Positions 21,001 through 27,000 of a DNA stretch of 64,000 nt are shown piece by piece. Within the stretch, counting starts at the first letter, position 1, and the number at the start of each line of letters is the position of its first letter. The position numbers are program-made. Source of the DNA: an uncultured Alphaproteobacteria bacterium (lineage in GTDB: Bacteria; Pseudomonadota; Alphaproteobacteria; Rs-D84); the NCBI GenBank assembly GCA_944390125.1, contig CALXOX010000001.1, positions 120,427 to 184,426 on the forward strand, in the 5' to 3' direction.

Positions 21001-24000
21001 CACGCAATCCCAAACGCGGCATATAATAATATTGGCTGTTATGTTTTTTTATTTTTATACCATTTCTTACAAACAAATACTGCGCAACAGACGTATTCTG
21101 TTCTTCTTTCGCGAAATAATAATAGTAATTTAAACCGTTTCTAGCATTCAAAAAAGTGGACTCACGCCCAATTGCGGACAAAATTTTTGCATCCTCTACA
21201 GGGTTTGCCAATTTTTTATCGTACCCAGGTGCAAAATAATTTTTTATAACTTCTAACAGCTTCATTTTTATAAACCTTTTTTTATTTTTGTCAACTTATC
21301 TTATACCAAAAAAATTATTTATCAAGACAAAAACGCCCCACGGTATTATTACCGCAGAGCGCTTTTGCCGGACAAAAATAGTAATTAAAATCCTAAACGA
21401 TGAGTCATTTTCATCATAAATATAGATTCATTTCCAAACTCATCTGTATTATTTGGATTTACGCGATATATAAAGCCTATTGCACCATCTGTAAATTCAC
21501 CAAAATTATGGCGATAGCTACCCGTAAAACGTACTTCCCTATTCTCTGGGCGCAAATTTACATTTTCTATATGCATATCCGTAATAGACAAATCATAATT
21601 GCCATCACCCAAATCAATTATTTCGTAATCGGCATATGGATATTGCAAAGTACCATCACTTACCGTCAAAGGTTGTGACACACTGAAACTAAAGTTTCCT
21701 GCATCAACACCAAAGGCAAATGCATTAGAATCAATATCGGAAATACCCAATATGAACTGCCCACTTGCATCTGTTGTTGTTCTTGCAAAAGTTGACCGCA
21801 ATTTCATAGTTAGGTTTTCAACTGGACTGTAACGAAACTCGGTATCAACATACATCGTTTCACCATTACCCATATCTAACAAACCACCAGTCTGCGCACC
21901 CAATAACGTTTCCGTTTCATAGGCAGCACCGACCGACGCAGAAAATCCAAACTTATCTCCCTGCCAATTTACATCTGATTGAGCACCTTGCATCAAACCA
22001 AGACGTGCAGGCAAGTATTGAGATGCCAACGTAGGGTCATTATCTAACATCGTTTCATCTGTAATTGCTCCAGAATATGCGCGTCCTCCAAAAGACCAAC
22101 GCCCCATATTATACAAGATATCAGAAGAAACAACATTTGACGCCATACCTAAAATAGGATTAGACATACCGTCAAATCTTGAAGCCCCGTCTGTAAAATG
22201 ACGTTGATAATCGGCTGCAAATGTCCAATTACCAGATGTATAATCCAAGCGCATATTGTCTAAACCATCCAAATTATCGGCATAAGCTTTTTCTGACATA
22301 GCCATTGAAAAACCAAACTTACCGAACTGCATACGTGCAGGCGCATCATTACGAGTTTTAAATTCGCCCAAAACATCGCCCATATACAACCCACGCTTAC
22401 TGGACGCACCCAGCGCAAACTCATTTTTCCAAACACGAGGCATCGACATATCACCATCTATACTTTCCAACATATCATAGAAAGGTGCACTAATCGTCGC
22501 TGTCGATGGGCTGAACGCTGATGATGCGCGGAATATGGTATTCGAAGCAGAACGCCAATAAGCATTACCATCTGCAGACACAATATTATTTCCGTCATAG
22601 AAGTAAATCTTTTTACCCGGTGTCATCGCACGTTCCAGATTTATCATTCCATACCCATATACTTCCGCAAATGCATCCAGATATTCTTGTCCAGTCAACT
22701 GGTCTGCATGATAATCTGGCGGTAAAGAATACATATTCTTTAAATAGGCAACTAAATTGTCAATTTTGAACGCATTACCAGCAGAATCTGTTCCAAGATA
22801 AGGACCGTCCGCCGTCAAGGCCATCAAAGTAAATATTGTATCATTTGTCATATAAGGGAATGCGCCTTTCAGTGCGGCCACGGCACCAGCTGCAGACGCA
22901 GTTGCCATTTCTGCCGTTGGACCGGCCGCAGAAAAACACCACGGATCAATGCCATTTATACCAAGACCTGCAATACCGCACTTACGTGACATATACTGAT
23001 TACCTTCGCTGTCTTTCCACATAGACAGATACAGCGGTCCATAATCTTTGCCCGTACCATCACCATAACCAGAAATACTATCTGCGTCAGAAGTACCGCC
23101 AGAATGCTGGACAGCAACGATAGTCATAAACATATGTTCCAAATTATCGTCGTACAATGCCGGTGCATAGTTTTCAAAGGTAGCATCTAAAACATTCATT
23201 GTTTTACCTTCGCCCTGCCCCCAAGCAAATTCACCCGCAGGATTTACCAAAATCGGCAAACTATTATTATACCCATTGAATATAGAATTAGCATATCCAC
23301 CCTGTGTTGTAGACTCGCTTGTATTCTTTTCATAATAGTTATTTATCAATGCTGCAAACAGAGTCTTTTTATCGGTGCCACTACTTAAAGCAAAATAAGA
23401 TTCTATTTCACCTATATTAGTGTAAGAAACATCTCTTGATTTAGGATTCAATGAAGCATTCGCAATAACTGCAGACCCATTTGTTCTTGCATTATAAATT
23501 GCTTCATAATTTCTAACATCTGATTCCTGCCATTCTTTCTGTGTGTATATATTATTATCACTAATGACATAAACGGCATCTGGTTTATTACCACCAGTAG
23601 TATTTACATAATAATAACCATCAGTCCCCTGATAAATTGCAATATCAGAAACATCTTCGCAATCATCACCAGAACAAGTGCCTTTCAGTAAATTACTGCC
23701 TGCTGCGATTTTAAACGTGGTATCACCAATAGTGATAGTCGGATTTGTAACCCCCGCATCGTCTAAAGCGGAAGAAATTGTATAAGTAACACCATTCAAT
23801 GTGATAGTATCACCAGGTTCAATCGTTCCAACCTGTGTTGTTGTACCAGAATCAGTCAACGTACCTACAACAGAGCCCTGTGTTGGATTTTCAACATCTA
23901 CCCATTGGCCACCGCCACCGGTTCTATAAATTGCCAATTGGCCATTAGGGGCAAAACCGTACAAATCACCGGTTGCACGTCCGCCAGCCTCCCAGCCCCC

Positions 24001-27000
24001 AATAATCTTTGCCAACGCGCTTTCTGTAGATGAGGCAAAAGGATTCATTGCCGAGCCACTGCCAGACAAATCAAACCCAGCAATTTCAGTTCCAAGATTT
24101 CCAGCACTTGGATTATTAAAATTCGCATATTTGTCTGACGCATAAGTATTTGATGTAGCAGCTGTTGAATCAGACCAAGTAATCCCCGTAGTTGTACGGC
24201 CTGCAGAACCCGTAGGATTTATACCATTTGCAGTAATAACAGATGTTAAGCTTGGTTTTCCCCCACCTGTAGTATTTAAAACTTTAATAGGATTATGTGA
24301 CGAATCTCTGAAAGTTGTTTGTCCCATATAACCGTTTGCAAAAGAAGAATACCCGTGCATAATCAATAAATAATTCTGTAAAGGAACCAATATACCGTCT
24401 ATAGCATAGTTATTTGTTGGTTGTTCCGTTGGTCTAAAATAATTAAAATCAGCTTCTCTTATGCCGCCGGCACTTGGATCCCACAAAGCCAAATTTGATT
24501 GATATGCTGCCGTACTATAAGCAATTTCTCCATCTGAAGTAAAATAAGCAGGCCCAACAGGTATTGCGTCAGATGCTGTTGCGCCGCCGCCACTACTACC
24601 GCCACCGTCTCCACCAGGACGATTACCGCTTGATGAACTGCCCCCATTTTCGTTTCCAGGATCAAGCCAATCAGTCAATAAAAAAAGTCCACCTACAACA
24701 ACGGCGGCACCCGCCGCCGCCAAAGATATCGTCTGGGCGGAGGACAATCCGCTGAACAGGCCACCACTACTTTGCGGTGTAGTTCGAGACTCATATTGTT
24801 TAATCTGTCTATCACACTGGGATGCGTCTGCACCATACATCTGCAAAATCTGTGCCGCACGAATATCATTATTCATCAAGGCAGTACAAACCAATGACAA
24901 CCCTGTACTGTCCACATAATTTACATTCGCCCCATTATTTATCAAAATTTGAACCTGCTGAATATCAGCATTTTTGGCCGCAGACAACAACTGGGCAGCA
25001 ACCATGAAATCATTATTAGGCGCGGTCGCAGCAAAGGCACCGGCTGGAAATAAAAACAACGCTAATAGCAAAAATCTGATGTATTTCATTGAAACTCTCT
25101 CTGTGCAAATTATTCTAACATACTTCTAAATTATATGTCTAGAAAAAACTTCACACAAAAAAACACCCCGTGCAAGTTTGCACGGGGATTTGGCATATAC
25201 ATATATTATATACACACTATTAGCGTGTACGACGATATGTCTTTACTTTCTTAACAACTATCAAGCTTGCTGCTGAAGAAGAATTACCAGACTGCTGTTT
25301 CAAAGAATCAACTGCAACACGTAAAGAATCTATCGCTTGACTATTATCATTAGCAAACTTGATGTCTCCACCGTTATTCACAATGATATTGCCATTGTTT
25401 ACAGAGCCTTCACCCAGCGTAATTTTTGTATTGCTGCTGTTTTTGGCCGCATTCTGCACAACGATATTATCTTCGTTTCTTGAATTGTTTTTCAAGTCAA
25501 TCGTTGTTACATGACCACGATTTGTACCGTCGCAAATTACATAAACAGTATCTTTAGGTTGTACCCTAGGTTTTGCTGGGGCTACTGGACGTTTAACAGG
25601 CTCTTGCCTTCTTGCCGGAGTTTCACAAGGTTGTTTCTTACTTTTTTCACAATCTTCCAAGCCTTCTTTATAAAAAGCTGTAGAATCACGCCACATAGCG
25701 ATAGAGTCACGCAATGCTTTATTTTCATTGCCAACATTTTCTATAGCTTCTCTGGCTCTTGCAATTTCATCACGCGCAACTGCTATGGATTCTGTTTCTT
25801 TCATTTCAGAGCAAGCCTTTGTGCACAAAACAGAAATAGCAACAACAGCCAAAGTACCTGCACTAACTGTAATAATTCTTTTCCAATTCATTTGTATCCC
25901 TTTTGTTTCTACACACTGTAATATAGTACAAAACAAATCTTTTGTCAATACATAAAAACATAATCTTTTTTGCGTTAAATTTGTATTTTCACTTTTCAGA
26001 TAAATTGTTTTTTGATATACTTCTAGGAAAGAGAGAAATGAAAAAAAATACCCTGTTCTTTATATTTTCCCTGATAACCTGCCCTGGCGCGGTCATGGCT
26101 GCAACATGTTCACAGATGAATCTTACAAGATGCTTAGATTCTGTGTGCGCAATAAACGTATCATCGAATCCTGCGGCACGTTGCCAATATTGCGGGACAT
26201 CCAGTGCTGGTACACCAAAGACAACCTCTGGCGGCATGCGCAGTTTATCACTAGGCCAATCTTCTAAATACACCCTGACCGAGGATGAACTAGAAGATGC
26301 TCCGACAGACCCAGGCCAGCGTTACGCTTGGGCGACTGCGCAATGTATTAAAAAAGTAGAGGGTTGTACTGTGGACGACGTGTCTGACACGTATGACGAA
26401 CTAATTGAACAATCATGTCGCGCAGCTGGAATTACTGCACAAATGTCCGCAACCATTGCCGACGCAAACAAGCAGACAGCAACTGCTTCAAGCTGTTTGA
26501 CATCCATACGTTCATGTCTGGTTGATGAAAAGAAGTGTGGTCCAGACTATAGCGCTTGTGAAGACGAAACTAGCTTTAATAATTTCTTTTCTGCATGCAG
26601 TGTTGAGGCTACAGGTTGCAGCGAATATATAGCTGAAATACGAACAAATCTATCTAACGCCCGCGACACAGCTATAAAAAATGCCGATGTATTGATTCAA
26701 AGTATAGTTACAAACTATCAAACAGCGCGAGAACAAAAAATTTTATCTGCCCAAGAATCTTGCAAAAATAATTCTGCACGCGAGACTTGTATAGAAACAA
26801 TTTGCGAACGCAGCATGCCAAACAAATGCGGAGTTGGTTATGATTCTGAACGTGCAACCGCAACATTGTTGTGCAAATTCTATGACTTGGCATGTGACGT
26901 TATAGAATAAAAAAATAAAAGATAGTAAATATGATGAAAGTAAAACAAACTTTTTGCTACTTGCATAAAATTTCGTACCTGACATTGTGCGCAATATTAC

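Follow-up and report, generated by a model that had tools for sequence, protein, structure and literature searches.

What kind of protein carries ankyrin-like repeats at one end and an outer-membrane β-barrel at the other, what is the long stretch between them, and which side of the cell envelope does it face? The question is raised by a single gene in a 64,000-nucleotide stretch of DNA (the window; contig CALXOX010000001.1 of GenBank assembly GCA_944390125.1, positions 120,427 to 184,426 of the forward strand) from an uncultured alphaproteobacterium of the Rs-D84 lineage. The minus strand of the window contains an intact open reading frame (ORF) of 1234 codons, from ATG to stop at 21385–25089, with the same G+C content as the window. 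A first-pass annotation of the sequence had described its product as a secreted protein in which an ankyrin-like block is joined through a Gly/Ser linker to a long passenger and a barrel ending in Phe, possibly displayed on the surface to interact with eukaryotes. We found that the passenger has the fold of a subtilisin but, as judged from alignments, not its catalytic residues. The overall picture that we favor, and hold to be probable though well short of assured, is an outer-membrane-anchored, type V-like binding protein descended from a surface subtilase.

The 1234-codon ORF is a genuine gene and not a chance ORF, because a sequence identical to the 1234-amino acid (aa) protein heads a protein cluster of 44 members and full-length homologues are found in at least 233 genomes. 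In a scan of one genome per prokaryotic species, the family was detected down to 46% identity. The identity of full-length homologues ranges from 46 to 92%, and the first 120 matches of the protein search were all full-length homologues at 57–92%. All 233 genomes are gut metagenome-assembled genomes (MAGs) labelled Candidatus Enterousia, uncultured Alphaproteobacteria, or “Rickettsiales”; the hosts of the MAGs bearing a homologue are humans, chickens, ruminants, horses, and mice, and one of the genomes is a closed chromosome of 958,618 bp. The source annotation of the homologues is only “ankyrin repeat domain-containing protein”. Enterousia belongs to the GTDB order Rs-D84, has genomes of approximately 0.75–1.0 Mb, lacks respiration and standard nutrient transporters, and has been proposed to live as an obligate symbiont or parasite (PMC12306168). 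The host association that ankyrin repeats brought to mind at first pass agrees with this small-genome gut lineage. The protein can be divided as follows, with coordinates in the window and, where calculated, the median identity of homologues to the query.

21385..25089, minus strand: whole ORF, 1234 aa plus the stop codon, from the translation and from homologues at full length
25030..25089, minus strand: residues 1–20, predicted Sec-type signal peptide MKYIRFLLLALFLFPAGAFA, predicted cleavage after AFA, read from the sequence
24802..25008, minus strand: residues 28–96, two ankyrin-like repeats, from Pfam Ank_4 and profile comparison; median identity 0.89
24670..24741, minus strand: residues 117–140, Gly/Ala-rich hydrophobic segment SAQTISLAAAGAAVVVGGLFLLTD, from Kyte–Doolittle hydropathy and conservation; median identity 0.92
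24565..24669, minus strand: residues 141–175, low-complexity Gly/Ser/Asn linker, from the sequence and as the least conserved region; median identity 0.46
22600..24564, minus strand: residues 176–830, subtilisin-fold (S8-like) domain, a putative pseudo-protease; median identity 0.60
22885..22923, minus strand: residues 723–735, vestigial Ser motif GPTAEMATASAAG, with Glu727 at the place of the catalytic Ser
22345..22599, minus strand: residues 831–915, low-confidence linker followed by a conserved β-hairpin and a short helix, from DSSP and model confidence
21388..22344, minus strand: residues 916–1234, predicted porin-like β-barrel, ending in THRLGF; median identity 0.61

We modeled residues 35–1234 with AlphaFold2 (AF2) on a 60-sequence alignment. 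The predicted local distance difference test (pLDDT) score is about 90 over residues 185–825, and fold comparison assigned this region to the subtilisin (S8) α/β fold. The long passenger seen at first pass is thus present as a subtilisin-fold domain. By sequence, it is far from recognizable as such: PF00082 gave no match in the 1234-aa protein even at E-values up to 1, and the passenger alone found no match among PDB sequences. Searches of Pfam and NCBIfam with the whole protein, and of the PDB with the whole protein, the family profile, the passenger, and the barrel, returned nothing except ankyrin; we dismissed weak matches to lysozyme and fragaceatoxin (E about 0.2–1) as chance. An hhalign comparison of the passenger with three textbook subtilisins produced a 15-residue match at the Ser motif, which at a probability of 3% is not significant alone, although its register was later borne out by alignments to relatives.

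The S8-like domain contains large insertions at approximately residues 395–525, 545–610, and 765–800, and the passenger insertions are the most variable stretches of the protein. A β-rich insertion of about 125 aa, including Cys472 and Cys477, is located at a loop lining the substrate cleft. Six cysteines are invariant in the 60-sequence alignment and form three nearby pairs (68/92, 472/477, and 704/718), which fits an oxidising, extracytoplasmic location. The first pair lies entirely inside the ankyrin block, and the 704/718 pair is common to the canonical relatives described next.

Relatives with an intact protease link this domain to true S8 enzymes. An exhaustive phmmer search with residues 176–1234 against 1.84 billion cluster representatives retrieved only 93 proteins. 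P0209 and P0210 possess a signal peptide, ankyrin repeats, the hydrophobic segment (in P0210 with poly-Gly behind it), a PF00082 protease bearing the canonical motifs VAVLDSG, SHGTHVAG, AAGND, and SGTSMAAPH, and a homologous barrel, whereas P0202 and P0207 consist of the protease and a homologous barrel only. PF00082 matches P0209 and P0210 at E 1e-45 to 1e-58, and the remote relatives overall at E 1e-39 to 1e-58. A search with P0210 uncovered a sizeable unnamed family annotated just as “S8 family serine peptidase”; the next-nearest sequences to this family are PF03797 autotransporter proteases (Serratia Ssp and Pseudomonas EprS), which match in the S8 domain only. When the Enterousia family was aligned by hhalign with 36 canonical members, the probability was 99.9% with E 2.2e-36 over 830 columns, covering residues 1–1232. 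By these profiles, the Enterousia family and the active S8-barrel family are homologous end to end and share common descent with true S8 enzymes.

The metagenomic proteobacterial proteins with an S8 domain and a porin-like barrel (P0209, P0210, and P0227–P0259) are thus the nearest counterparts, with homology over the whole length and, in the ankyrin-bearing ones, the same domain order. They differ in retaining the Asp, His, Asn, and Ser of the active site and strong PF00082 matches, in their length of 700–1050 aa, and in lacking the three large insertions. Judged from these comparisons, the Enterousia branch is a catalytically dead, expanded, ankyrin-bearing derivative of this family. The P0210 gene resides at 6001–8982 of locus L083 (contig ctg321779_81x_c, 2.1 Mb) among housekeeping genes (DnaK-like, SspB, Mfd, and DksA), and its locus lacks the Cys-rich operon of Enterousia described below. 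The occurrence of this layout on a 2.1-Mb contig indicates that the domain layout is older than genome reduction.

We mapped the catalytic residues by MAFFT and hhalign, which were in agreement, and counted the residues found at each position in 244 family sequences.

Asp32 is replaced by A287; in the family A, E, D, G, T, K, and others
His64 is replaced by T355 or a gap; never His in the 244 sequences
Asn155 of the oxyanion hole is replaced by E620; Glu in 194, Ala in 24, and Asp in 16 (Glu or Asp in 210 of 244)
Ser221 is replaced by E727; Glu in 224 and Ser in one of the 244

The GTSMAAPHVSG motif is replaced in the family by (P/A)T(A/T/S)EMATASAAG, and a hairpin of about 20 residues ahead of it is deleted. 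Because Asp, His, Ser, and the oxyanion Asn are all replaced, the alignments define the S8-like domain as a pseudo-subtilase by the usual criteria. The possible peptidase domain that the first-pass annotation wanted looked for is accordingly present as a fold and, by these alignments, gone as a catalytic triad. Of the 244 sequences, 242 have Asp, Glu, or Gln at position 356, next to the place of the lost His, and together with Glu727 and the mostly acidic position 620 these carboxylates at the former active site hint at a retained site for a cation or a basic group. Three more specific candidates were tried. The invariant His245 was ruled out as a catalytic His, as it aligns to the N-terminal “A..GY.G” segment before strand 1. 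A His-His-Glu metal site of His662 and Glu727 with His245 was ruled out as well, with His662 located in the “VAVxx” strand and not at the Asn155 position. A strict Glu620/Glu727 dyad, suggested by apparent covariation in four distant members, is weakened by 22–24 sequences with Ala620 that keep Glu727.

At the other end of the protein, the N-terminus is predicted to be a cleavable Sec export signal, with K2 and R5 in the n-region, a hydrophobic core, and an AxA site (AFA followed by A; the next residues are AT). The pattern is kept across the family and in remote relatives, and the signal peptide named in the first-pass annotation is present as MKYIRFLLLALFLFPAGAFA, with AT after the predicted cut. 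The ankyrin-like character of residues 28–96 is likewise upheld, by sequence profiles of which one is right at the Pfam threshold: Ank_4 scored 22.8 bits (E 1.1e-4), barely clearing the cutoff of 22.7. Among PDB sequences, only DARPins matched, in register across two repeats. Compared by hhalign with a consensus designed ankyrin, the family profile reached a probability of 93% (E 3e-7, 61 columns in register), with shuffled controls at 2% at most; compared with the clear ankyrin repeats of P0210, it reached 94%. In remote relatives, the homologous block matches Ank at E 1e-9 to 1e-13, the latter in P0210.

The first-pass annotation correctly placed a Gly/Ser linker behind this block (residues 141–175), but the two are not joined directly: it had missed the hydrophobic residues 117–140 between them. 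These form the most hydrophobic stretch of the protein, with a Kyte–Doolittle 19-mer mean of 2.18 vs. 1.93 for the signal peptide. The small residues A125, A129, and G133 follow an i, i+4, i+8 pattern, which would create a helix-packing face. The ankyrin block and the hydrophobic segment are far more constrained than the remaining protein, as the median identities listed above show against a yardstick of about 79% for TpiA of the same loci. The near-invariance of the ankyrin block in bacteria from birds, ruminants, horses, and humans points to a conserved partner rather than to a fast-evolving host target. All 10 ankyrin-bearing relatives with an active protease possess an equivalent Gly/Ala segment and then a Gly/Ser-rich run, mostly poly-Gly. 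The Gly/Ala segment also occurs in some relatives with a different N-terminal extension, and in the shortest relatives the protease comes directly after the signal peptide. This recurrence across relatives identifies an N-terminal domain, a Gly/Ala helix, and a flexible tether as a recurrent module.

As a separate observation, residues 28–140 (24670–25008, minus strand) were poorly modeled by AF2 in two runs although they are the most conserved part of the protein. Helices appear at the expected places of the ankyrin block, at pLDDT below 50 in both the long and the N-terminal model, the latter covering 160 residues with a mean pLDDT of 48. Ankyrin repeats are usually easy to predict. The low confidence may stem from the very small differences among the aligned sequences, or from folding that depends on a partner or a membrane.

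The C-terminal region is modeled as an outer-membrane β-barrel, in keeping with the first-pass annotation. The linker at residues 831–864 has a pLDDT below 50, and the hairpin and helix that complete residues 831–915, with the conserved motif ISAPFxDxLES..PRVW.NEF, could in the model serve as a plug or else make up barrel strands one and two. The barrel model comprises 18 strands of 10–15 residues, in which, from the fourth strand on, turns of 1–4 and mostly 7–18 residues alternate; it would accordingly count 16 strands with a preceding hairpin, or 18 strands, over approximately 320–370 aa. This alternation of short and long turns, together with the hydrophobic/aromatic end, is what characterizes an outer-membrane barrel, a closed antiparallel structure whose turns are short on the periplasmic side and longer outside. 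The best structural matches were 16-strand porins, TamA, and BamA, and also PelB and OmpM1. No PF03797 match was found in the 1234-aa protein or its relatives, and two relatives showed weak OprB or BBP2 porin matches. Hence, the scan for an autotransporter domain advised at first pass came out negative, the 16–18 strands and the porin, TamA, and BamA matches speaking for another barrel type. Several long barrel loops belong to the best-conserved stretches of this domain and recur in the canonical relatives (NPxLxL, E..T.LG...GG, and RxNPNH), which suggests that they may line the lumen or dock the passenger. The terminal Phe noted earlier is correct for this protein but not a family trait, as the last residue is Ile in at least 90% of 60 aligned homologues.

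How does this architecture compare with known systems? The protein would work most like an S8 autotransporter, and it shares with classical type Va autotransporters the N-terminal Sec signal, as read from the sequence, and the N-terminal passenger, but it has neither the PF03797 barrel of 12 strands nor the catalytic triad, two features that define S8 autotransporters. Serratia marcescens Ssp (PDB 8e7f), Pseudomonas EprS, Neisseria NalP, and Bordetella SphB1 have both their own 12-strand PF03797 barrel and an active Asp/His/Ser triad, and they lack the N-terminal ankyrin block and the hydrophobic helix. The pseudo-subtilases CspC and CspA of Clostridioides difficile and the non-proteolytic binder PCSK9 are alike in principle but not close kin: they act in other lineages and contexts (spore germination and mammalian secretion, respectively), with neither a barrel nor an ankyrin block. 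Omp85 proteins such as TamA and BamA, the type Vd protein PlpD, and OmpM tethering porins combine 16-strand barrels with N-terminal domains. No POTRA or SLH domain was detected in the 1234-aa protein, the sequence searches gave no relationship to the Omp85, PlpD, or OmpM types, and PlpD was absent from the match lists. No relevant paper on this combination of domains turned up in a literature search.

Taken as a binding protein, the molecule would be made as follows. It would pass the inner membrane via Sec, with cleavage of the signal peptide, and the hydrophobic segment would not be kept in the inner membrane, because a segment held there would leave the Cys-paired passenger and the barrel trapped on the cytoplasmic side. 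Segments of this Ala/Gly-rich type are known to be poor stop-transfer signals, as exemplified by the hydrophobic core of PrP, and VacA takes a similar segment through the autotransporter route. The C-terminal barrel would insert into the outer membrane and anchor the N-terminal part, probably exposing it on the cell surface as in type V proteins. The dead subtilase would then serve as a binding scaffold and not as an enzyme, with a remodelled cleft and conserved carboxylates at the old active site, and the ankyrin pair with its glycine-zipper-like helix would form a contact module for a conserved partner, which may be a protein or a membrane and may belong to another cell or to the bacterium's own envelope. 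We consider surface exposure of the N-terminal part roughly twice as likely as a periplasmic location, because the S8 domain is most closely related to autotransporter proteases that are secreted or sit on the surface. Topologies with the ankyrin block in the cytoplasm were rejected: the positive n-region and the cleavable AxA signal occur in all family members and relatives, and a two-helix hairpin in the inner membrane would put the Cys-paired passenger and the barrel in the cytoplasm. Alternatively, the small-residue helix might pass through the wide barrel in the manner of helix H1 of FhaC, which would place the ankyrin block and the passenger on opposite sides of the membrane.

The genomic surroundings bear on these topologies. 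The features around the gene are:

25112..25141, minus strand: promoter-like site TAGACA-18-TAGAAT with a TG, 5′ of the start codon, by consensus match only
25166..25187, minus strand: terminator-like hairpin at the end of the upstream 242-aa gene
20858..21265, minus strand: downstream ORF of 135 aa on the same strand as the gene
25942..30749, plus strand: divergent operon of three ORFs, 25942–26910 (322 aa), 26931–28418 (495 aa), and 28422–30749 (775 aa)

A purine-rich stretch lies between the promoter-like site and the ATG, and the hairpin that closes the 242-aa gene suggests a transcription start of its own for the 1234-aa ORF. Between this gene and the 135-aa ORF no terminator-like site was found, the next one being at 20806–20835, past the 135-aa ORF. 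The latter may be co-transcribed and may encode a partner; in 57 of the 82 related loci a homologue, about 34% identical, comes 3′ of the gene, and the 135-aa ORF has neither a Pfam match nor a signal peptide. The three products of the divergent operon are all secreted, Cys-rich proteins. The last, 775-aa product carries CarboxypepD_reg, CPL1-like, and OmpA-type domains according to Pfam, whereas the 322-aa and 495-aa products have no Pfam match. Homologues of these two accompany the gene in 78–79 of the 82 related loci and that of the 775-aa product in 59, and this conserved linkage points to an envelope-related neighborhood without giving a function.

Several neighbors deserve mention in their own right. 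The upstream 242-aa ORF (25220–25948, minus strand) combines a single membrane helix at the N-terminus with a coiled-coil-like stretch and a tail rich in Asn and Ser, and is recognizable in 38 of the 82 loci at about 35% identity. ORFs of 181 aa (20006–20551, minus strand) and 691 aa (31083–33158, minus strand) also encode secreted, Cys-rich products without a Pfam match, and occur near the gene in just six and eight of the 82 loci, respectively. The genome stretch around the gene is altogether rich in predicted envelope or secreted proteins without known function. Farther away, an ORF at 14117–15205 (plus strand) with a signal-like N-terminus matches the choloylglycine hydrolase/linear amide C-N hydrolase family (PF02275, E 2e-64), and its product could be a bile-salt hydrolase, consistent with the gut habitat.

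Several points weigh against the surface-anchored binding protein. The side of the outer membrane on which its N-terminal part resides is a deduction from the kinship of the S8 domain. The barrel differs from the 12-strand PF03797 type of classical autotransporters, and BamA, TamA, PelB, and OmpM, which combine a periplasmic N-terminal domain with a 16-strand barrel, are among its structural matches. A strongly hydrophobic segment of 20 residues would normally be expected to halt Sec translocation, which the proposed export route needs not to happen. The ankyrin block and this segment were predicted at pLDDT below 50, with no confident fold. Finally, the loss of the triad, as deduced from the alignments, argues against serine-protease activity but is not proof of zero catalysis.

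The alternative that best survives, to which we give a minor but real share of our confidence, is that the barrel alone resides in the outer membrane and the remainder of the chain faces the periplasm, making the protein an envelope scaffold, a tether, or a gated channel, and not an adhesin. The best barrel matches (16-strand porins, TamA, BamA, PelB, and OmpM1) favor it, several proteins of these types having a periplasmic N-terminal domain, as does the modeled strand and turn pattern, in which the chain enters the barrel from the periplasmic side. The linkage to the secreted, Cys-rich operon in 78–79 of the 82 loci, with its OmpA-type peptidoglycan-binding domain, would also be in line with it, and the near-invariance of the N-terminal module speaks for a conserved partner that the bacterium itself supplies. 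Yet the S8 domain has its closest kin among surface or secreted autotransporter proteases, and an active subtilase confined to the periplasm, as the canonical relatives would then be, has no precedent that we know of. Moreover, sequence variability peaks in the passenger insertions, as expected of exposed surfaces, and the hydrophobic helix would have no obvious membrane to occupy.

The suggestion of the first-pass annotation that the protein interacts with eukaryotes, in its strict form a surface-displayed effector whose ankyrin repeats bind a host protein, seems unlikely to us, if not by much more so than the periplasmic arrangement. In its favor, the protein has ankyrin repeats and an export signal with an outer-membrane anchor, and the bacterium is host-associated (PMC12306168). 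However, nothing favors a eukaryotic partner over a bacterial one or the cell itself, the module hardly differs between bacteria of very dissimilar hosts, and the same order of ankyrin, helix, S8, and barrel exists in larger genomes, e.g., on the 2.1-Mb contig of P0210. NCBIfam matches to ankyrin effectors were negligible (12 bits). In addition, the ankyrin effectors known from bacteria reach the host cytosol through type IV secretion and carry no Sec signal.

A bolder extension of the surface-anchored binding protein has, in our estimate, a rather slim chance of being right. The protein would then represent an undescribed type V-like class of secretion or anchoring, with an S8-fold passenger mounted on a porin-sized barrel of 16 or 18 strands. 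The ankyrin pair, the glycine-zipper helix, and the poly-Gly tether would insert into or dock on the membrane of a partner cell, and in Enterousia the protease would have turned into a ligand- or cation-binding pseudo-enzyme with carboxylates at the old active site, the whole being a core attachment or nutrient-acquisition organelle for the obligate symbiotic or parasitic life that has been proposed. Least credible is a surviving enzyme with a new metal site or carboxylate pair built from Glu727, Glu620, and Asp/Glu356, for which the conservation of Glu727 (224/244), Glu/Asp620 (210/244), and Asp/Glu/Gln356 (242/244) would suggest a retained function, but which is opposed by the Ala620 sequences that break a strict dyad, by the deleted hairpin before the Ser motif and the 125 aa inserted at the substrate-cleft loop, and by the fact that we know of no carboxylate-based hydrolase on the subtilisin fold.

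The outer-membrane-anchored binding protein would fit the partner-dependent lifestyle proposed for the lineage. Candidatus Enterousia, or Rs-D84, comprises widespread uncultured gut Alphaproteobacteria with genomes below 1 Mb, for which a life at the expense of other cells has been proposed (PMC12306168). A gene of 3.7 kb that has stayed intact in all related genomes examined despite genome reduction is likely important for that lifestyle, and part of its product is more conserved than triose-phosphate isomerase. Beyond this lineage, the protein points to a broader, unstudied family of subtilases on a porin-like rather than a classical autotransporter barrel, and it adds a Gram-negative envelope case to the short list of pseudo-subtilases. 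For the bacteria themselves, the ankyrin block and the Gly/Ala helix provide a defined target for finding their attachment partner.

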